Positions 43,130-56,600 of a stretch of DNA of 64,000 nucleotides are shown here, one piece after another. The stretch lies in contig CAYMGD010000005.1 in assembly GCA_964389905.1 (NCBI GenBank), positions 6,842 through 70,841 on the forward strand, given 5' to 3'. Below the pieces are notes generated by a model. That model saw nothing but the letters and a program-made list of their open reading frames with translations. It searched no databases and was not told the origin of the DNA. This stretch comes from an uncultured Coprobacillus sp. GTDB taxonomy: Bacteria; Bacillota_I; Bacilli_A; ML615J-28; CAG-698. How positions within the stretch are numbered: the first letter of the stretch is position 1; the number at the start of each line of letters is the position of its first letter. The translations under genes and the position numbers were made by a program.

Positions 43130-45079
43130 ATGGCAAAAGAAAAGAAAAGTGTATATAGCTCAGATGAAATTCAAGTTTTAAAAGGATTAGAAGCAGTAAG
43201 AAAGCGTCCTGGTATGTATATTGGTTCAACCGATTCCCGTGGTTTGCATCATTTAGTATGGGAAATATTAGATAATGCTATGGATGAGGTTTTATCAGAT
43301 TATTGCGACAAAGTAATTTTACGAATTAAAAAAGGAAACATTGTCGAAGTAGAAGATAATGGCCGTGGCATTCCTATTACAATGCATAAAGAAGGCGTTC
43401 CTACACCACAAGTTGTTTTTTGTATGTTACATGCTGGTGGTAAGTTTGATGATTCTTCGTATAAGGTTGCAGGTGGACTTCATGGTGTTGGTTCAAGTGT
43501 GGTTAATGCTTTGAGTGAATGGTTAAAAATAACTATATATCGTGATGGTAAATGTTATACGCAAACTTTTTCTAATGGTGGTACGGTTATTGGTAAACCA
43601 AAGATTGTTGCAGATTCTTCGAAACGCCATGGTAGTATTGTTGAATTCAAACCTGATCCTTCGATTTTTTCAATTATTAATATTGATTATAAGCAGTGCG
43701 TTCAAAGACTTAAGGAAGCTGCTTTCTTAATCAAAGGATTATGCGTCGAAACATTTGATGAAAGACATGGTCTTCATGATAAATACAAATTTGATGAAGG
43801 TATTGTTGAATATATAAAAGATATAAATACGGGAAAAGAAGTTCTTCATGAGCCTATTTTTATTAGTGGCGTATGTAATGATATTACAATTGAAGCTGCT
43901 ATTCAATATACTAATAACCCTTATACAGAAAATATAATTTCCTTTGTAAATAATATTCGTACTCGTGATGGAGGAACACATGAAATGGGTTTCCGTTCAG
44001 CAATTACTAAATCATTTAATGAATATGCTCGAATGAAAAAACTATTGAAAGAAAAGGATCCAAACCTTGATGGCTGTGATGTTCGTGATGGTATAAATGC
44101 TATTCTTTCGATTAGAGTTCCAGAACGCATTTTACAATTTGAAGGTCAAACAAAAGGTAAGTTGGGATCAGCTGAAGCAAAAGTAGCTGTTGAACAGTTT
44201 GTAATGGAAAAGCTTAAATTCTTTTTATCAGAAAATGCTAACATAGCTGATATTTTAGTTAACAACGCTATTCGTTCATTTAAGAATCGTGAAGCTGCTA
44301 AAAAAATAAAAGAAGAAACGAAAGATATTAAAAATAAAATCAATAAAAATGTAAATATGAACGGTAAATTATCTCCTGTTCAAGTAAAAGATCCTAAAAC
44401 TAACGAACTATTTATCGTCGAAGGAGATTCAGCTGGTGGGTCAGCTAAACAAGGCCGAGATAGACGTTATCAAGCAATCTTACCACTTCGTGGTAAAGTG
44501 TTAAACTCTGAAAAGACAAAAATTGATGAATTATTAAAGAATGAAGAAATTCGTTCTATAATATATACAATTGGTACAGGCGTTGGAGAAGACTTTAATA
44601 TTAATAAATGTAATTATAATAAGATAATTATAATGACCGATGCCGATGATGATGGAGCTCATATTCAAATTCTATTATTAACATTTTTCTTTAGACATAT
44701 GCGTGGTTTAATCGAAAATGGTAAAGTTTATTTGGCTTTACCACCACTATACAAAATAGCTTCGAAGAATAATTTTGTATATGCTTGGACAAATGATGAG
44801 TTAAAAGAAAAAACATCAGCAATGCGTAATTATGAAATCCAAAGATTTAAAGGTTTGGGTGAAATGAATTATGAACAATTGTGGGAGACAACAATGAATC
44901 CTGCAACAAGAACTTTAATAAGAGTAGATATTGAAGATATGAGTGATGCTGAAGCAAGAATAACAACTTTAATGGGTGATGATGTTATTCCTCGTCGAAA
45001 ATGGATTGAACAAAATGTATCATTTGATAATACAGATGATTTTGACTTAGTAACAGATGAAGGTGAAGAAGATGAGTAA
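43130..45079 (+). CDS. parE: type IIA topoisomerase ATPase subunit, assigned as topoisomerase IV ParE
   Basis: [49 protein letters not shown] and DADDDGAHI. The plsY-parE-parC gene order supports topo IV rather than gyrase. Confidence 0.8.
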
Positions 45080-47540
45080 AAAGAAATCATTAATCGATAA
45101 AATTGCTGGTTTTGCTACTGAAAAGATTCTCCAAGAAAATATTGAAAACTTATTTGGGGAAAGGTTTGGAAGATATTCTAAATATATAATTCAAGATAGA
45201 GCCCTTCCAGACTGCCGTGATGGCTTAAAGCCAGTTCAACGAAGAATATTATATGCAATGTACAAATTAGGAATGTTTCCTAAAACTCCTTACAAAAAAT
45301 CAGCTCGTATAGTTGGTGAAGTAATCGGTAAATATCATCCTCATGGTGATACATCAGTTTATGAAGCAATGGTAAGAATGAGTCAATCATTTAAAATGCT
45401 ATTACCTTTAATTGATATGCATGGTAATAATGGTAGTATCGATGGCGATGGCGCTGCCGCAATGCGTTATACTGAAGCAAGACTATCAATTTACGCTGAT
45501 TACCTTTTACGTGATTTAAACAAACACACGGTAAATTTTGTTCCTAACTTTGATGATGAAGAGCTAGAACCTGTCGTTTTACCTTCACGATTTCCTAATT
45601 TATTAGTTAATGGTGCTACAGGTATTGCTGCGGGATACGCAACAGAAATGCCTCCTCACAATATAGGGGAAATAATTAATGCTATTATCTATCGTATTAA
45701 TAAACCTGATTGTAACTTAAACGAAATAATGACAATCGTTCAAGGTCCTGATTTTCCAACTGGAGGAATCGTTCAAGGAATTGATGAAATCAAAAAAGCT
45801 TTTAAAACTGGGCGTGGAAAAATTGTAGTTAAGTCACGTACTGAAATTATTGAAAATAATAATATTAGACAAATAATTATCAGTGAAATACCATATGGCG
45901 TAAATAAAGCTCAACTTGTAAAAAAGATGACAGATGTTGTTTCAGAAAAAGCTGTAGATGGTGTTATTGATATCCGTGATGAATCAGACCGAGAAGGTTT
46001 AAGAATTGTAATAGATGTAAAAAAAGATGCTAATGCTGAAGACATAAGAAACTTTTTCTTCCGCAGCACTGATTTACAAATAAATTATTCTTATAACAAT
46101 GTTTGTATTTATAATAAAAGACCTGTTTTAATGGGCTTAATCGAATTAATTGATGCTTTTATTGAACATCAAAAAGAAATTGTTACTAATCGTAGTAATT
46201 ACGATTTAGCAATTGCTAAAAAGAGATTACATATTGTTGAAGGATTGATAACAATGGTATCAATTCTTGATGCAGTTATTCAAACAATAAGATCATCAGC
46301 TAATAAAAAAGATGCTAAAGAAAATATAATGGCAAATTACCATTTTACTGAAGAACAAGCTGAAGCAATTGTAATGTTACAATTATATCGTTTAACAAAT
46401 ACTGATATTGTTGCTTTAATGAAAGAAAAAGATGAATTAAATCAAACAATAGCAGAACTTAACGAAATTTTATCAAATGAAAATTCTTTACTAAAAGAAA
46501 TCAAAAATGAATTAATTGCTACATTAAAAGAAATTGACTTACCACGTAAAACAACTATTGAACACAAAATAGATGAAACCGTAAAACAAGTTGATGTAAA
46601 AGTATTAATTGCTAAAGAAGATGCCGTTATTATTATAACAAAAGATGGTTACATTAAGAGAATGAGTCCAAAAGTATACAACTCTGATGAAGAAAATAAA
46701 TTAAAAGAAGAGGATTTTGTTGTTGCAAAATATGATGTAACTACTCTTGATACGCTTTTATTCTTCACTGACAAAGGAAGTTACGTATACTTACCAGTAC
46801 AAAACATTCCTGAATCTCGTCCTAAAGACTTAGGAAGAAATATTGCCGTAATGGCAACAATTCCTCCAGAGGAAAAAATTATTTTCTCTGTTCCAGTTAA
46901 TGACTTTGAAGCTGACCGTTACGTTCTCTTCACAACCAGAAACGGCTTGACAAAACGAACTCATATCCGCGAATTAGTTGCCACTCGTTACTCTAAAGCC
47001 TTAAAAGCAACAAAACTAAGAGATGGCGATGAAGTAGTAAGTGTCGATATATGTAATGGTGAAGATCACGAAGTTATGGTCGTTACTAAAGAAGGATATA
47101 TGCTTCGTTATAATGCGAGTGAAATCAGTTTATTTGCGTTACCATCATATGGTGTAAAAGCAATCGAACTCAAAAATAGACCAACTGATGAAGTATTAGG
47201 AGCATTCTATGTTTCTCAAAAAGATACCCTTTTAGTGCTTAACGAAAAAGGTGGAATTAGGAAATTCAAATCAACTGATGTTCCTAAAGGCAAAAAGATT
47301 CACGTTGGAAAACTTTGTGTAAACGTTGCTAAGCCAAATGGTTATTTAATTGATTTTGAAGTATTACATGAAAAATGCGAAAACACAAAATGTTATTTAG
47401 TTGGAGATATTTCTTCTAAAGAAATTAACTTAGATGAAGATGCAAAAGGATTAAACGTTAAAAAACTCCCATCCCTCACAACAAAGGTTGGAGAACCAAT
47501 TTGTTTAATACCAGCTCATACATCTCAAGATTTTGAATAG
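45072..47540 (+). CDS. parC: type IIA topoisomerase subunit A, assigned as topoisomerase IV ParC
   Basis: [18 protein letters not shown] and [10 protein letters not shown] (catalytic Tyr). No GyrA-box (QRRGGKG) is visible in the C-terminal domain. ATG 45072 overlaps the parE stop (ATGAGTAA). Confidence 0.8.
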
Positions 47541-47548
47541 GTGAAAAT

Positions 47549-48553
47549 ATGAATTGTTTATTAAATATTGACCATTATGTTATTCCTAACGATATTGTTG
47601 TGAAATTAGCAACAATATATAGATACATTGGAAACAATGATTTCTACCTAAATTCCTTAGGTAATGATATAAATAAAGTTATTGACCTAACAGTGGAAAA
47701 AGACGCTTACTTTTTATCGAAGATTTTAGACCTTGATATATCAGAAGCCCGTGCTAAACTTATTATTACAAAAAACTCTTCACCACGAAACAAAGAAGAA
47801 ACAACCCTAGCCAATATTAAGGAGTTACTATCAGGTATCCAACAAAAATATCATACCTTAAAACTTAAAAGTAATGATTTATATAATATGATAAATTATG
47901 TTTATTCCCATTATAGTAGCATTAAGTTTGGGATGTATGAAGGAAAAAGATCTGTGCTCCAATCACAAAGCATGGAAAGTAAAAGAAAAATTCTTGATGA
48001 AATGAGTGATCTTGTTGATAAATATATAACAAATAACTTATATGAAAAGATTATTTTATATATTCATTATTTTATAGATTTATCCAATCTTTCACCATTT
48101 GAATCAAAAAATGCAACAATTGCTTATCTCACACTTTACCAATTAATTTTATCTGCTGACTTAAATGCTTTCAAATATGTAAGTTTCTTTGAAATGCTTT
48201 ACAACAATTATTACAATTTTTCTAATGAACTTTGTAAAGCAAGTGTTAACTGGAAAGAGGGCTACGCCCAAACAACAGAATTTGTAAGATACTTTTTAGC
48301 CCTTATTGAAAAAGCATATAATAGTACAGATCAAATAATTAAAAATTATCAATATGATAAAACAAATAAAAAATATGAAAACATTGAAAGTTCAATTCTC
48401 TCAATGAAAACCATCTTTACAAAAGATGAAATAAGACAAATGTATCCTTATGTTAGTGAATCAACCATAAATAGAGCATTAGTCAGTCTTCGTGATATGG
48501 GATTAATTGAACCACTAGGAAAGGGTAGATCTGCAAAATGGACGAGGAAATAA
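47549..48553 (+). CDS. Fic-fold-like protein with degenerate active-site motif and C-terminal winged-helix domain
   Basis: SPFESKNATIAY sits where Fic proteins carry HPFx[DE]GNGRxxR. The C-terminus STINRALVSLRDMGLIEPLGKGRSAKW looks like a wHTH. Starts 9 nt after parC. Confidence 0.45.
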   Translation: MNCLLNIDHYVIPNDIVVKLATIYRYIGNNDFYLNSLGNDINKVIDLTVEKDAYFLSKILDLDISEARAKLIITKNSSPRNKEETTLANIKELLSGIQQKYHTLKLKSNDLYNMINYVYSHYSSIKFGMYEGKRSVLQSQSMESKRKILDEMSDLVDKYITNNLYEKIILYIHYFIDLSNLSPFESKNATIAYLTLYQLILSADLNAFKYVSFFEMLYNNYYNFSNELCKASVNWKEGYAQTTEFVRYFLALIEKAYNSTDQIIKNYQYDKTNKKYENIESSILSMKTIFTKDEIRQMYPYVSESTINRALVSLRDMGLIEPLGKGRSAKWTRK

Positions 48554-48606: not shown

Positions 48607-48646
48607 GATGTATAATATTAATAATAAATAATATAAGGTGGAAGAT

Positions 48647-49453
48647 ATGAAAAAAGTTAGATTATTTGTCTCTATCATATCATTTTTTCTCATTAGTTTT
48701 ATAATGACAATATCAATATGCTATGATTTAGACTCAACAAATTCTTTAGTTTTATCATTAATGATTATATTAATAGCTTACTTAAACTTATGCTTAAGAA
48801 GACAAGAAATAAACGAAATAAAAAGAATAATATTATCCTTTACTGAATCATGTGATTCTGATAAATGTCTTCAAGAATTAAATAAATTTATGAAATCATG
48901 CTTTTTTACAAAAAAACAAAAAAAATCATTTAATTTATATTTAGCAACAGTTTATATCGATAAAGGTGATTTAGAAACTGCAAAGGATTTACTATTAGAT
49001 ATTGATACAGTTAATTATGCCTTCAACAAATTAACAAAATTTGTATATCTAAAAAACTGGTGTGATTATTTCTTTTACAAACGACAAGATGAAAAAATGA
49101 AATATACGCTTTTAAAAATGAAAGATATAATCGATTTACTTCCAAACAATCGTACTAAATTTCAATTTATTCAAGTATATCAAAACGTTTCCGCAAAGTA
49201 TGCAATTTTGATATCAGAAAATCTTAACGAAGTTTATACCTACATAAAAGCACAAAGCGTATATGAAAACTCAAATTTCCAAAAACTGAATACATCATAT
49301 ATTACTGCTTTAATCGACCTCAGAAAAGGTGATACTGAGGCTGGCATAGAAAAATTAAAAACATTAGCTAAGGCTAATAAAAACCTATTTATTTGTGATG
49401 ATTCAAAAAGATTAATAAAAAAATATGAAGAAGAAGTCTTAAAATTAAATTAA
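48647..49453 (+). CDS. membrane protein with two N-terminal TM helices and a TPR-like helical domain, hypothetical
   Basis: RBS AAGGTGG in front of ATG 48647. No recognisable catalytic motif. Confidence 0.5.
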   Translation: MKKVRLFVSIISFFLISFIMTISICYDLDSTNSLVLSLMIILIAYLNLCLRRQEINEIKRIILSFTESCDSDKCLQELNKFMKSCFFTKKQKKSFNLYLATVYIDKGDLETAKDLLLDIDTVNYAFNKLTKFVYLKNWCDYFFYKRQDEKMKYTLLKMKDIIDLLPNNRTKFQFIQVYQNVSAKYAILISENLNEVYTYIKAQSVYENSNFQKLNTSYITALIDLRKGDTEAGIEKLKTLAKANKNLFICDDSKRLIKKYEEEVLKLN

Positions 49454-49466
49454 GGCTCTTTTTTTC
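49435..49466 (+). terminator. rho-independent terminator, last '+' transcription unit before the terminus gap
   Basis: AGTCTTA-loop-TAAGGCT (one G-U pair) followed by T7. Confidence 0.55.
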
Positions 49467-49589
49467 ATTTTATATCGATTCAAATTAATTAAACAGTTAA
49501 ATACTAAGAAAGAAATAAAATCGATTCTAAGTTAAATTTCAGTCATTAATATTATAAAAGATTTAAAAGAAAATATAGCATCTAAAATC

Positions 49590-50245
49590 AACTTATGAGA
49601 AGATTAATTATTATCTTGTTAAGAGTTATCAATAATATTATTTTAAAATTATTATTAAAGAGATTATATTATGATTCCATTAAAGAATTTATTTTAAGTA
49701 TTTATAAGTCTAGTATTAAAGTTTTTTAATTCATGAATTATTTTTATATAACTAATTTACAATCAATTTATGAGAAGATTAATTTCACCAGGTTAATAAC
49801 TATAAATAATCTTTTTCTAAATCACTTTTAGAGAAGATTATTTTTTATTATTATCCAATCATTAATAAAATATTAATAATTCTTATTACAAATCTATAAA
49901 TAATCGTATCAATAAAGAATTACTCAAAATATCAAATAAACAAAATATTTAGCTGCACTATATAGCATTATTTAAAATGAATTAAATAATCATTTTGTGA
50001 GAAGATTAATTATTATCTTGTTAAGAGTTTAATATTCTTTTAAAATTATTATTAAAGAGATTTTATAATGATTCCATTAAAGAATTTATTTTTAGTTTTA
50101 TAAGTATTAGTATTAAAGTTTTTTAATTCATGAATTATTTTTATATAACTGATTTTATAGATCAATTTATGAGATGATTAATTATGTGTTGGTTAATAAC
50201 TATAAATAATCTTTTTCTAAATCACTTTTAGAGAAGAAAAATTTT
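49590..50245 (+). repeat. left block: two tandem ~402-bp higher-order repeat units (A, B), each built from three sub-modules that begin with (T)GAGAAGATTA
   Basis: Exact TGAGAAGATTAATT at 49596, 49771 and 49998. Variants at 49831, 50170 and 50231. Unit B carries small indels relative to A. Confidence 0.9.
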
Positions 50246-50388
50246 TCTTATTAGCACAACAGATAATAAGTAACATATTAGTAGAACTGGTAAAATTTTT
50301 CTGATGATATAAGAATAGTTATTAACATCTAATAACTGAAAAGAAGTATTTATTAACTTTTCATAGCAGTATTTTAAATAGTGTTTTA

Positions 50389-50416
50389 ACTTCCTATAAT
50401 ATATATTATGTTAAAT
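50389..50416 (+). other. dif: dif site (XerC/XerD chromosome dimer resolution site)
   Basis: ACTTCCTATAATATATATTATGTTAAAT matches 25/28 positions of B. subtilis dif as I recall it (ACTTCCTAGAATATATATTATGTAAACT). The right arm TTATGTTAAAT is identical to the E. coli XerD arm. Confidence 0.85.
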
Positions 50417-50922
50417 AAAATATATAAACGGTGGGCGTTTTTATAATAAAATCAAGTGTATAAGTTTATAAATATAATTTTCAGTGGAAAATTATTAAAT
50501 TATTTACTTGTGGATAATTTATTGTTTTTTATATAAATTTCTTTTTAAATCGATTTTTAAAAAGATTAAAGATTTTTTATTAATATTTATAAATTGAAAT
50601 TATGCGAAATTTTATTTTTATGATGTTTTTTTTGTTTAAATTAAAATAAAAAAAATAATTATCTTCTTAGACAATTATTTTTAGAAATATAATTTTAAAA
50701 AGTTTTTAAAAGTTATCAACAATTATTAATTGTTAATAAATGATTAGTTATTAATATTATTTATTTAAATAAAATGTTTTAATTCTTTCAAAAAAGCTTT
50801 TAATTCTTCTTTTGTTGTGTTTTTTGTTTACTAATTAATAAATTACTATTAGCTAAATTAAATCGATTAAAACTCAAATTTGAGACTCATTTATTTAATA
50901 CTTTTACACTTATTGAAATTTC

Positions 50923-51405
50923 TATTTGTGAGAAGTTTATTATTTATCTTGTTAAGAGTTATCAATAATATTATTTTAAAATTATTATTAAAGAGATCAT
51001 ATTATGATTCCATTAAAGAATTTATTTTTAGTGTTTATAAGTCTAGTTTTAAAGTTTTTTCAATTCATGAATTATTTTTATATAACTAATTTACAATCAA
51101 TTTATGAGAAGATTAATTCTGTTTGGTTAATAACTATAAATGATCTTTTTTTAAATCACTTTTAGAAAAGATTATTTTTTATTATTATCCAATCATTAAT
51201 AAAATGTTAATAATTCTTATTACAAATCTATAAGTAATCGTATCAATAAAGAATTACTCAAAATATCAAATAAACAAAATTCTTATCTGAACTATAAGAA
51301 TTATTTAAAATGGATGAATTAAATATCATTTTATGAGAAGATTAATTATTATCTTGTTAAGAGTTATCAATAACATTCTTTTAAAAATATTTATTAGAAA
51401 GATTT
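50923..51405 (+). repeat. right block: repeat unit C plus the first ~70 nt of unit D, a direct repeat of 49590-50062
   Basis: Exact 14-mer at 51105 and 51334, and a variant TGAGAAGTTTATT at 50929. The offset from the left block is 1333-1336 bp. Confidence 0.9.
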
Positions 51406-51475
51406 AATTATTGAGTATTAAGAAAATTACTAATAATAGTTCTAATAAAGTCAATTTCAATTTGTTTTAATTTAT

Positions 51476-52060
51476 TAATTCTTTTTATAAGATGATTAAT
51501 TTTATTGGATTAAGAATCAATAAATAAACTTCATAAAAAATGTTTTAGAAAAATAATTTTATATCTATTCTCTTATATAAATTTTAAATACAGAAACTGA
51601 AATGAACCTAATTTATAGATGATTATTTTTTTAACATTTATTTTTTTAAGTTTGTAATTAGTTAATTTTATCAATTGATATTCTTCATCAGATTATGTAA
51701 TAAATGATTTACCTGATATAAAATTAATAAAGTTTTACAAGATGATTTATAATTTATTATTACAATTATTAATAAAATAAGATCTTTAAACAAAAATTTT
51801 AACCTCTTTTTTCATTTTTAATCTATTATTAATATTTTGTTTATAAATTAGTCATATAAAGTTTAAATCAATTGTAAAGTAAATTTAAGGATAATACTTA
51901 ATAAAGAAAATAATGAACTATAATCAATTTTATTATGATTAATTAAATTTATAAGATTTTTATAATAAATTAAGTTAACAATTGAAAAAAAAGAAATTTT
52001 ATAATTTTATTTTAAAATATAGTCACAGAAATAATTAAAAAGCCTCTCTAATGAGAAGCT
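51476..52060 (+). repeat. trail of degenerate head-motif copies (ATAAGATGATTAATT, ATAGATGATTATT, ACAAGATGATTTAT, ATAAGATTTTTAT, ATGAGAAGCTTAT)
   Basis: Read by eye at about 51486, 51613, 51737, 51950 and 52050, all on the '+' strand. Confidence 0.5.
52036..52060 (-). terminator. candidate terminator of the minus-strand hydrolase-deoB-xerD unit
   Basis: On the minus strand: AGCTTCTC-ATTA-GAGAGGCT followed by TTTTAATT. Confidence 0.45.
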
Positions 52061-52234
52061 TATGTAATTAATCATATTCATTTTATTTTGTTGAATACAA
52101 ATATTTTATGATAAAAATTGTAAAAATTTGTAATTTTTTTATTTATTATTCATCATTTTTACTGTTTTTTATCTAAAAATTAACGTTTTTTTATTATTTT
52201 TTTATTTAATTTAATAAATAAAATTATTATAAAG

Positions 52235-53146
52235 TTATTTTATATTGTTTATTAGAAGCCAATTTAATATATAATTATGTATTTCTTGTTTGTTTTTTTC
52301 TAATAAAATCTCATGTCTACAATCGTCAAATAGTTTTAAAGTAATATTTTGACGATGCATTTTCTTGCAAAGTTTCAATGTTCCTTTTCCCATTCCACCT
52401 ACAGGATCGCTTTTACCAGAAACAATTAGTATAGGTAAATCTTTAGGAGTTTTCTTGTAGTTTTTATTTAGTTTTTTAGTGCCTTTGAAGAAGTATTTAA
52501 AGTATGCTAGAGTGAATATTCCTCCGCAAAAGTCATCTGATATGTATTTGTCAACTTCTTCTTCATCACGATTTAACCAATCGTAAGGGGTTCTGTTTGG
52601 TTTGAAGTTTTTGTTGTAGGATCCAAATGTCATTTTATCAATTAGTTTACTACGATGTTTTCGACCTTTAAAGGCTATTAATATTGATGAAATGGCGCTT
52701 GCTAATGTAAGTAATAAATTAGAATTATATCCGCTCCCACAAAGTATTAATCCATCAATTTTGTTACCGTGAAGTTGAGAATATCTGTTTGAAACAAATG
52801 AACCCATACTATGAGCAAATATAATTATTTTTTTGTTTTCTTCATGTAATTTTACAAAATCAATCACGTAATCTAGATCTTTGACTAAATAATCAAAATT
52901 ATCTTCATCACCCATATAGCCATAGTTTTCTTTTCCATCAGTTGGAAAATGTCCACGATGACTATATGCGTATACTTTATAGCCTGAATTAATCAAATTA
53001 TTAGCAAATTCTTCATATCTTTCAATGTGTTCAGCCATACCATGAGCAATCACTACAACACTTTCATAATTTGTATTTTTTGATGCATATGTTAGTAATT
53101 TTTTACTATCAAAAGATGTTATAAACATTTTTGAAAAGTTTTCCAT
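52235..53146 (-). CDS. alpha/beta hydrolase (lysophospholipase/monoacylglycerol-lipase-like)
   Basis: HGMAEHIERY and nucleophile elbow AHSMGS. Length 303 aa. Confidence 0.75.
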   Translation of the reverse strand: MENFSKMFITSFDSKKLLTYASKNTNYESVVVIAHGMAEHIERYEEFANNLINSGYKVYAYSHRGHFPTDGKENYGYMGDEDNFDYLVKDLDYVIDFVKLHEENKKIIIFAHSMGSFVSNRYSQLHGNKIDGLILCGSGYNSNLLLTLASAISSILIAFKGRKHRSKLIDKMTFGSYNKNFKPNRTPYDWLNRDEEEVDKYISDDFCGGIFTLAYFKYFFKGTKKLNKNYKKTPKDLPILIVSGKSDPVGGMGKGTLKLCKKMHRQNITLKLFDDCRHEILLEKNKQEIHNYILNWLLINNIK

Positions 53147-54387: not shown

Positions 54388-55290
54388 TTAATTTTTCTTA
54401 TTTGCATGAGGATGAGATTGTTCAAAAACCTCACGTATTTTGGCACTATTAATATGAGTATATATTTCGGTTGTGGAAATATCGGCATGGCCTAAAAGTT
54501 CCTGAATCAAACGTAAATCTAAGCCTCTTTCTAGCAAGTGAGTAGCAAAAGAATGTCTTAATTTATGTGGTGAAATTGGTTTTTGAATTCCAGCAGCTTT
54601 TGCTTTTTCCTTTATAACAATGAAAAACATTTGTCTTGTCATTTGTTCACCATTATGATTCAAAAACAAAAAATCATTAGGGCGAGGACTAGCAAGTTTA
54701 GGCCTTCCAAGTTCTAAATATTTTTTTATTAGTTCAATAGCTTTTGCACCAACTGGAACAATTCGTTCTTTGCTGCCTTTACCAACAACATCAATTATTC
54801 CCATTTGTAAATGAACGGAAGACAATTTTAAATTTATTAGTTCACTGACACGTAATCCACATGAATAAGTAAGTTCAACCATTGTTTTATTACGAAGTTC
54901 AATCGGTGTATCTTCGGTGAATGTTGCTAATAAATTATCAACTTCTTCTAGCGATAAAACCACAGGAAGTTTCTTTTCTTTTTTAGGATTAGTAATCAGT
55001 TTTGCAACATTTTGTTCAGTATAATGAAATTTAACTAAAAATGTATGAAATGATTTAATCGATGAAAGTTTTCGTGACAAACTGCTAGAAGAAAGGTTTT
55101 TTCGTTTAAGTGTTGCAAGATACGCTCTAATATCATTTACAGTTATATCTTGAGGCATTTTACAACTACGATATTTGCTTAAATAATTTAAATAATCTGA
55201 TATATCTTTTAAGTAATTATCACAAGTGTTTTTACTTAAACCTAGTTCAGTTGTTATATACATTTCATATTCAATCAAAAAATTATTCAT
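54388..55290 (-). CDS. xerD: tyrosine site-specific recombinase XerD
   Basis: Catalytic residues lie in CGLRVSEL, LRHSFATHLLE and LGHADISTTEIYTH. Lies ~4 kb from the dif site. Confidence 0.85.
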   Translation of the reverse strand: MNNFLIEYEMYITTELGLSKNTCDNYLKDISDYLNYLSKYRSCKMPQDITVNDIRAYLATLKRKNLSSSSLSRKLSSIKSFHTFLVKFHYTEQNVAKLITNPKKEKKLPVVLSLEEVDNLLATFTEDTPIELRNKTMVELTYSCGLRVSELINLKLSSVHLQMGIIDVVGKGSKERIVPVGAKAIELIKKYLELGRPKLASPRPNDFLFLNHNGEQMTRQMFFIVIKEKAKAAGIQKPISPHKLRHSFATHLLERGLDLRLIQELLGHADISTTEIYTHINSAKIREVFEQSHPHANKKN

Positions 55291-56571: not shown

Positions 56572-56600
56572 AAAATCGATTTCTGAGAAGATTAATTTTT
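56572..56600 (+). repeat. isolated copy of the terminus-array head motif (AAAATCGATTTCTGAGAAGATTAATT)
   Basis: Exact TGAGAAGATTAATT at 56584-56597, on the same strand as the array. Confidence 0.85.

Follow-up and report, generated by a model that had tools for sequence, protein, structure and literature searches.

Does the 28-bp sequence found where the genes of this stretch of DNA converge correspond to the dif site of the replication terminus, and does the DNA around it share in its function? The stretch that was analysed, called here the window (64,000 nt, C5:6842-70841), comes from an assembly of 73 contigs and 2.10 Mb (~2.1), with 28% G+C, 98.7% complete and read with code 11; an alternative genetic code was discarded, since the genes are unchanged when table 4 replaces table 11. 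The model that we propose combines two statements of different strength. The first is that the 28-mer would be the genuine and quite ordinary chromosomal dif, of the Firmicutes-type family, of a low-GC Bacilli genome, to which we give a probability of about 0.93. It follows from the similarity of the sequence to known dif sites, its uniqueness, the strand and skew switch at which it lies, the presence of the recombination machinery, the single copy in relatives and its roughly antipodal position in the closed ones. The second, far more tentative, is that in part of the clade dif may act together with a neighbouring array of DnaA-type boxes.

The site, its surroundings and its conservation

The features of the window that bear on the first statement are the following.

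43130..47540, + strand: parE-parC (topoisomerase IV; TIGR01058 905 bits, TIGR01061 940 bits)
47549-48553, + strand: Fido-domain gene of 334 aa, directly after parC (PDB 8uqu_A, E 9e-16, full length)
48638-49453, + strand: last gene before the gap, 271 aa, hydrophobic N-terminus, no family match
49454..52234, no strand: gene-free terminus gap holding dif, 2781 nt, 15% G+C, no ORF of 90 aa or more
50389..50399, + strand: XerC-type (left) arm of dif, ACTTCCTATAA, with one difference (T for G) from the B. subtilis left arm
50400..50405, + strand: central region of dif, TATATA, 6 bp, the same as the B. subtilis dif spacer (PMC3025954)
50406..50416, + strand: XerD-type (right) arm of dif, TTATGTTAAAT, the same as the E. 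coli XerD arm
54388..55290, - strand: xerD (TIGR02225, 351.4 bits against a cutoff of 329.6)

The earlier note had recognized an 11-6-11 architecture, ACTTCCTATAA-TATATA-TTATGTTAAAT, at 50389-50416, and its coordinates are exact. Its comparison with B. subtilis dif, which gave three mismatches, holds against the published string, ACTTCCTAGAATATATATTATGTAAACT (Kono et al. 2011, PMC3025954), with 25/28 positions identical. The right arm, for its part, matches the XerD arm of the E. coli dif, GGTGCGCATAATGTATATTATGTTAAAT (Kono et al. 2011, PMC3025954), at 11/11 positions. The inner ends of the two arms, ATAA and TTAT, are symmetric (palindromic) around the 6-bp spacer, and a match to B. subtilis dif with at most 3 mismatches was obtained in 0/100 dinucleotide shuffles of the window. 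The search for further copies that had been suggested as a check was run on the 2.1-Mb assembly: the 28-mer occurs once, nothing is found at 1-5 mismatches, and the next best matches are four unrelated sites at 6. Uniqueness, palindromic arms and nearness to the skew shift, the marks by which dif sites are recognized in the literature (Kono et al. 2011, PMC3025954), are thus all found here, which supports the reading of the 28-mer as dif.

The position of the site was equally well described at first reading. No ORF-free gap of the window is longer than the one that holds it, the runner-up measuring 950 nt, and the genes are carried by the + strand before this gap and by the - strand after it, with three exceptions. 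The GC skew, which is strong throughout the genome (about +/-0.17), passes on C5 from +0.16 left of dif to -0.12 right of it. The check on its cumulative curve, which had also been asked for, was run contig by contig in this 73-contig assembly; it puts the maximum of C5 at position 52722 of the window, 2.3 kb from dif, a distance that represents 0.11% of the genome and is made of DNA with 15% G+C and little skew signal. As for the other end of the replichores, dnaA (C3:46128-47537) adjoins a skew minimum (C3:46034) and perfect DnaA boxes. The interpretation of the 28-mer as the probable dif of the replication terminus is therefore supported.

The machinery expected to act on such a site is present. 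The xerD gene, said to lie about 4 kb away, is 3972 nt from dif and scores above the equivalog cutoff, and its linkage to dif is conserved, xerD being found within the retrieved dif loci of 51 species. A second Xer-type recombinase is encoded on another contig; its best model is XerC (333.6 bits for a cutoff of 335.15), and this XerC candidate thus stands 1.5 bits under the equivalog cutoff. The translocase is represented by an FtsK homologue of 752 aa (C11:8283-10541) with FtsK_alpha, FtsK_SpoIIIE and FtsK_gamma domains, the only full-length FtsK homologue of the genome, in which a membrane-anchored FtsK/SpoIIIE was not found. Its 260 N-terminal residues, as read from the sequence, are hydrophilic and hold no membrane segment, so that the protein resembles SftA. 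Two arrangements with a single recombinase were considered and rejected. A dedicated Xer module of the XerS/difSL or XerH/difH type combines one recombinase with an atypical site of at least 31 bp beside it, whereas the present site is of the classical type and measures 28 bp; the neighbouring recombinase obtains 124 bits on the XerS model for a cutoff of 267, and a second Xer recombinase is also encoded.

The search for motifs that could orient the translocase left the raw skew ranking alone as informative, the de novo search of polar motifs with a mononucleotide null being swamped by coding bias. In this ranking, GAAGAAG is the most strand-skewed of the frequent 7-mers of the genome (1260 leading : 132 lagging), and its distribution in the window (+ strand : - strand) flips at dif, from 32:4 on the left to 1:7 on the right. 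As coding bias contributes to this polarity, we take it as supportive evidence only. GAAGAAG is a candidate FtsK-orienting motif of the Lactococcus type, for which an A-rich heptamer has been reported (Nolivos 2012, as cited in PMC5357621).

By homology with the known systems, XerC would bind ACTTCCTATAA and XerD would bind TTATGTTAAAT, and the two recombinases would exchange strands across TATATA, thereby resolving chromosome dimers at the replication terminus. The FtsK/SftA-type translocase, with its gamma domain, would bring the two dif sites together, and its movement would probably be guided by strand-polar motifs that flip at dif, GAAGAAG being the best candidate for this role. Binding and recombination by the Xer proteins at this locus are thus proposed from homology; the sequence of dif, its uniqueness, its position at the strand and skew switch, its conservation and the presence of the machinery are directly established.

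Conservation concerns both the site and its neighbourhood. Exactly one copy, with at most 3 mismatches, is present in 27/41 genomes of the same genus, family or order, and the reversed pattern, used as a control in these relatives, gave no matches. In the alignment of relatives, column conservation falls steeply at both edges of the 28-mer. When the sites are read from XerC to XerD, the skew is positive on the left and negative on the right in all the relatives that have 8 kb of flank on each side, and the flanking genes converge on dif in 74/100 loci with both neighbours callable. In three closed relatives, the single-copy dif is found at 44.8%, 48.6% and 48.7% of the circle from dnaA; in a fourth one, a shotgun genome, dif and dnaA are separated by 44.4% of a 3.8-Mb contig.

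The gene order parE-parC-Fido gene / dif / deoB-xerD-hemW-lepA is family-wide, parE-parC being the last conserved leading-strand genes before dif. The 334-aa gene that follows parC has no Pfam or NCBIfam match and was recognized by PDB 8uqu_A, the record of which reads 'Fido domain-containing protein'; it bears a wHTH, and its homologues are present within the dif loci of 50 species, so that it belongs to the conserved synteny of the terminus. The 271-aa gene next to the gap is poorly conserved, with 26-37% identity in three family relatives and one further locus matched.

The exact 26-nt core of dif was retrieved from more than 120 species, mostly MAGs labelled Bacilli, Izemoplasmatales, Anaeroplasmataceae, Acholeplasmatales or Mollicutes, together with a few Bacillaceae. 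The same core is also carried by contigs binned as Prevotella, Muribaculaceae, Planctomycetales, Omnitrophota and Bdellovibrionales (loci L074, L027, L041, L060 and similar). The flank of the 'Prevotella' locus L074 is near-identical to that of the Bacilli MAG L098, and some of these labels therefore look like the result of mis-binning and not of conservation across phyla.

The flanks of dif and the DnaA-type boxes

Around the 28-mer, five short elements of the gap call for attention.

50344..50352, + strand: left-flank motif AAGTATTTA, 45 nt before dif, semi-conserved in the dif-anchored alignment of the order
50426..50440, + strand: G+C patch or weak hairpin, AAACG-GTGGG-CGTTT, the 15-mer of the gap richest in G+C
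50455..50463, + strand: DnaA-box-like 9-mer AGTGTATAA, at +39 from the XerD arm, an offset class that ranks second by number across species
50483..50491, + strand: DnaA-box-like 9-mer AGTGGAAAA, offset +67
50509..50517, + strand: perfect DnaA box TGTGGATAA, reverse complement of TTATCCACA, offset +93

The hairpin at 50426-50440 had been presented as the sole GC-rich patch of the gap. It does exist and is the richest 15-mer (8/15 G+C), but two others reach 7/15, and that part of the claim has to be given up. It folds at -5.4 kcal/mol with a 5-bp stem comprising 2 G-C pairs, 6% of the shuffles fold equally well, and relatives do not conserve it: in 134 species, the 40 nt that follow dif fold no better than control segments. 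We have therefore rejected it as a functional element and, its stem being weak and the terminator scan making no call there, as an intrinsic terminator. On the other hand, the columns +14, +15 and +22 after dif, which bear G or C, are semi-conserved within the order, and AAG[TC]ATTTA occurs at the same offset (-45) in both families of the order in the dif-anchored alignment, so that the flanks are constrained, though in a form other than a hairpin. The meaningful neighbour of dif is not this hairpin; it is an array of DnaA-box-like sequences, which had been overlooked at first reading.

In the window, the array consists of the boxes at 50455, 50483 and 50509, which form the sole same-strand [AT]GTGNAWAA triple within 70 nt in the 2.1 Mb. 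One of the three is a perfect 9-mer (1/3), the box at 50509, which is one of the 21 perfect boxes of the genome; each of the others has two deviating positions, one of them position 1. Measured against the relaxed consensus (9-mers TTATCCACA / TTWTNCACA), AGTGTATAA and AGTGGAAAA deviate at position 1 only. The organism's own oriC uses AGTGGATAA too. The spacings of the three boxes, 28 and 26 nt, do not amount to whole turns of the helix; in relatives, offsets such as 47/58/68 are found.

It is in the flanks of the relatives that the array takes its full form. The pattern TGT[GT][GAT]A[AT]AA, looked for within +20 to +130 of dif, is present in 49/131 non-redundant species (37%) and in 3-6% for the seven control segments, which were taken from the other strand of this region, from both strands of the XerC side and from distal positions. 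It is on the XerD side that the boxes recur, without any change of strand; 14/20 genomes of the window's own order have the pattern, and 0/7 Bacillaceae. Counted from the end of the XerD arm, the offsets of the boxes form the classes 39, 48-49, 58-59, 68-69, 80, 91, 101, 122 and 132, with a periodicity peak at 10.5 bp (Rayleigh R = 0.80) that 0/5000 random sets of distinct offsets reached. The p value is ~0.015 when the offsets are collapsed by class and ~0.001 for the spacings within genomes, shared ancestry inflating these phasing statistics. The sequence feature itself, an array of DnaA-type boxes phased on the XerD side of dif, is real in this clade. Phased arrays of TACTA-N6, which were looked for as well, occur neither here nor in any of the 140 dif loci.

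Which protein would these boxes bind? The arrays that flank dnaA in this genome and in eight relatives are made of the variants TGTGGAAAA, TGTGGATAA, TGTTGATAA, TGTTAATAA and TGTTTATAA, disposed as same-strand series 11-12 bp apart, and these are the variants of the dif boxes. Furthermore, the perfect TGTGGATAA of the window also occurs beside dif in many Izemoplasmatales and Anaeroplasmataceae. Since the boxes of dif share their variants, their same-strand orientation and their 11-12-bp spacing with the dnaA-flanking arrays, DnaA is the most economical binder, and it is on these grounds the most likely one.

We have weighed against it the possibility that another protein, or no protein at all, binds the boxes: a dedicated terminus or Xer accessory factor, for instance, or XerD, through degenerate half-sites. 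The variants TGTTGATAA and TGTTAATAA, one or the other of which is present in many relatives, depart from the strict DnaA consensus at position 4, and a wHTH-bearing gene, that of the Fido-domain protein, is conserved beside dif. These points speak for such a binder, although we judge it unlikely. Indeed, it has to face the kinship with the dnaA-flanking arrays and the perfect boxes described above, and, in the case of XerD, the fact that extra half-sites are not enriched near dif, in the window or on the contig, for which reason additional XerD half-sites of the XDS type were also rejected. Some other short motifs were noted. Reverse-oriented GTTATTAAC (50318-50326) and GTTATCAAC (50712-50720) are found 71 nt to the left of dif and 296 nt to its right, respectively, and GTT[AG]ATAAC, with 5 copies in 2.8 kb, three of them inside repeat modules, has in the gap ~46 times its density in the genome. 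A cluster of GT[GT][AGT]ATAAC on contig C7 was set aside as probably due to chance, its members being dispersed inside genes.

With DnaA as the preferred binder, we propose that the dif of Acholeplasmatales, Izemoplasmatales and RFN20-like Bacilli might be composite. An array of DnaA boxes of the oriC type, all on the same strand and on one face of the helix, would stand at distances of 39 + n x 10.5 bp beyond the XerD arm, and DnaA, once bound, would act together with XerCD-dif. This proposal is drawn from the arrangement of the boxes, and we put it forward as a tentative one, with a little less than an even chance. Two roles of the array can be envisaged. In an architectural one, DnaA would be an accessory factor controlling when or how XerD gets activated. 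In the other, the array would be a DnaA sink located at the terminus, by which the initiator would be informed that replication is complete. In the searchable literature, no account of DnaA boxes next to dif was found.

The end of replication and the repeats of the gap

Could dif be real and replication nevertheless end elsewhere, at a switch on C21 (~26 kb) or at another place, the switch at dif being the product of a rearrangement? The assembly has two maxima of cumulative skew, on C5 and on C21, and dif sites are argued to lie near the termination point and not necessarily at it (Kono et al. 2011, PMC3025954). The second switch of gene orientation and skew, at ~25-26 kb of C21, is convergent and smaller, with 10 kb of negative skew up to the end of the contig. 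However, it has no dif-like site (best 8 mismatches) and is surrounded by ordinary metabolic genes, and it is possibly a local inversion or an effect of the contig end. An additional skew minimum, resembling an origin, is found at 23.5 kb of C8, at the gene of a large serine recombinase, beyond which the genes are transcribed divergently (a switch of the lysogeny type). The segment C8:21316-29199 encodes this recombinase (Resolvase + Recombinase + Zn_ribbon_recom), a small divergent regulator and DNA-metabolism genes. The recombinase and the lysogeny-type switch indicate a mobile element (prophage or integrative element) and no origin. Finally, wherever a relative of the family has long flanks to the left and right, the skew switches at dif and the synteny is the same, and dif is roughly opposite dnaA in the closed relatives. 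An end of replication away from dif is thus improbable.

The gap itself is filled, on both sides of dif (49581-51540 of the window), with direct-repeat modules, the head of which, TGAGAAGATTAATT, is present in six exact copies; these lie on the + strand of the terminus region, and the rest of the 2.1-Mb assembly has none. An outlying exact copy of TGAGAAGATTAATT lies on the same strand at 56584-56597, 6 kb from dif, between hemW and a small lipoprotein gene. Two copies of ~550 bp with 87% identity (49593-50145 and 50926-51489) bracket dif, so that recombination between them would delete it. Beyond dif itself, relatives share no more than a few tens of bases on each side (120 nt in a genome of the same genus), and the expansion of the modules is therefore specific to this genome. 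Being all on one strand on both sides of dif, the modules are not polar toward it and were dismissed as FtsK-orienting motifs. The same disposition, together with the lack of any RTP homologue (no PF02334 match in the genome), led us to reject an RTP/Ter fork trap. A structured RNA was likewise discarded, Rfam giving no match in the gap at E up to 1.

These repeats raise the question of a mobile origin, in which the 28-mer would be the attachment site or the scar of an IMEX or a phage, and the repeats and DnaA boxes of the gap the remnants of the element's replicon. The unusual length of the gap, the ~550-bp direct repeats around dif and the boxes, which are typical of plasmid and phage origins, could be read in this way. 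Yet genes of integrases, replication or phages are absent from the gap, as is a second dif-like site (best 8-9 mismatches), and the supposed decayed duplicate, which would stem from the tandem duplication of a 1334-nt unit, was rejected as no better than shuffles, its alignment score being below their mean. Moreover, the site, its orientation relative to the skew and the synteny are conserved across two families, and helically phased box offsets shared across orders do not fit sporadic integration. We hold this origin to be very improbable.

The last possibility, a chance AT-rich near-palindrome without function, could invoke the 85% A+T of the gap and the pure A/T composition of the spacer and inner arms, but the shuffles, the uniqueness of the site in 2.1 Mb, its one copy per relative against an empty reversed-pattern control and the sharp drop of conservation at its edges leave it hardly any room, and the conservation data have effectively refuted it.

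Relation to known systems and biological meaning

The dif of this genome is closest to that of B. subtilis, with its recombinases CodV (XerC) and RipX (XerD). The two sites share the 28-bp length, the 11-6-11 architecture, 25/28 bases and the TATATA spacer, and both are in single copy near a skew switch in genomes with two Xer recombinases. In the case of the translocases, SftA and SpoIIIE in B. subtilis, the sole full-length FtsK homologue found here is of the SftA kind, without a membrane N-terminus. The position of xerD next to deoB resembles the ripX-drm arrangement of B. subtilis. The differences are three bases of the site, an xerD that is only 4 kb from dif and, in the absence of an RTP homologue, no RTP/Ter fork trap. 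In contrast with the Bacillaceae, of which seven loci were sampled and none has boxes, a phased array resembling DnaA boxes follows the XerD arm. With the dif/XerCD/FtsK system of E. coli, the common points are an identical XerD arm, the FtsK gamma domain and polar motifs converging on the site; unlike in E. coli, the XerC arm is of the Firmicutes type and the candidate polar motif is GAAGAAG, not GGGNAGGG.

For the array, two comparisons suggest themselves. The plasmid Xer sites cer and psi have accessory DNA on the XerC side, which binds PepA with ArgR or ArcA, and its geometry relative to the core matters. The likeness is one of idea only, that of an Xer core joined to neighbouring DNA predicted to bind a protein; the array described here stands on the XerD side and resembles DnaA boxes, and a role as topological filter would be an analogy. 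The second comparison is with the arrays of oriC and the DnaA-titrating loci (datA of E. coli, the clusters of B. subtilis), to which the array is related by the same 9-mer family and the same-strand disposition. Furthermore, the ~11-bp spacing of the dif boxes of the clade is that of the arrays flanking dnaA in these genomes. It differs from them by its location at the terminus and its phased distance from dif, and neither an unwinding element nor a DnaA-trio was seen in the dif-side array. The DnaA-box clusters of which we know are origin-proximal. XerD-only sites (XDS), at which SMC is unloaded in the terminus of B. subtilis, were reportedly described by Karaboja et al. in 2021; such sites illustrate a function of XerD at the terminus beyond dimer resolution, while here no extra XerD half-sites are enriched.

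In conclusion, the 28-bp site taken alone is conceptually nothing new, dif having been predicted in most Firmicutes since 2011. It provides a firm terminus landmark in the fragmented genome of an uncultured lineage, and together with dnaA on C3 it allows contigs to be oriented by replichore. The potential importance of the locus lies in its flank, where a helically phased array with origin-type variants is fixed to the XerD side of dif in several orders of Mollicutes-related Bacilli. We know of no translocase that activates the Xer recombinases directly in Bacillus-type systems, and an architectural role of the array, if true, would matter where the only FtsK homologue is soluble. Could the start and the end of the chromosome cycle be physically linked in these bacteria, as they would be if dif were composite? 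If DnaA binds the array, it would offer a testable handle on the coupling of dimer resolution or termination to initiation.
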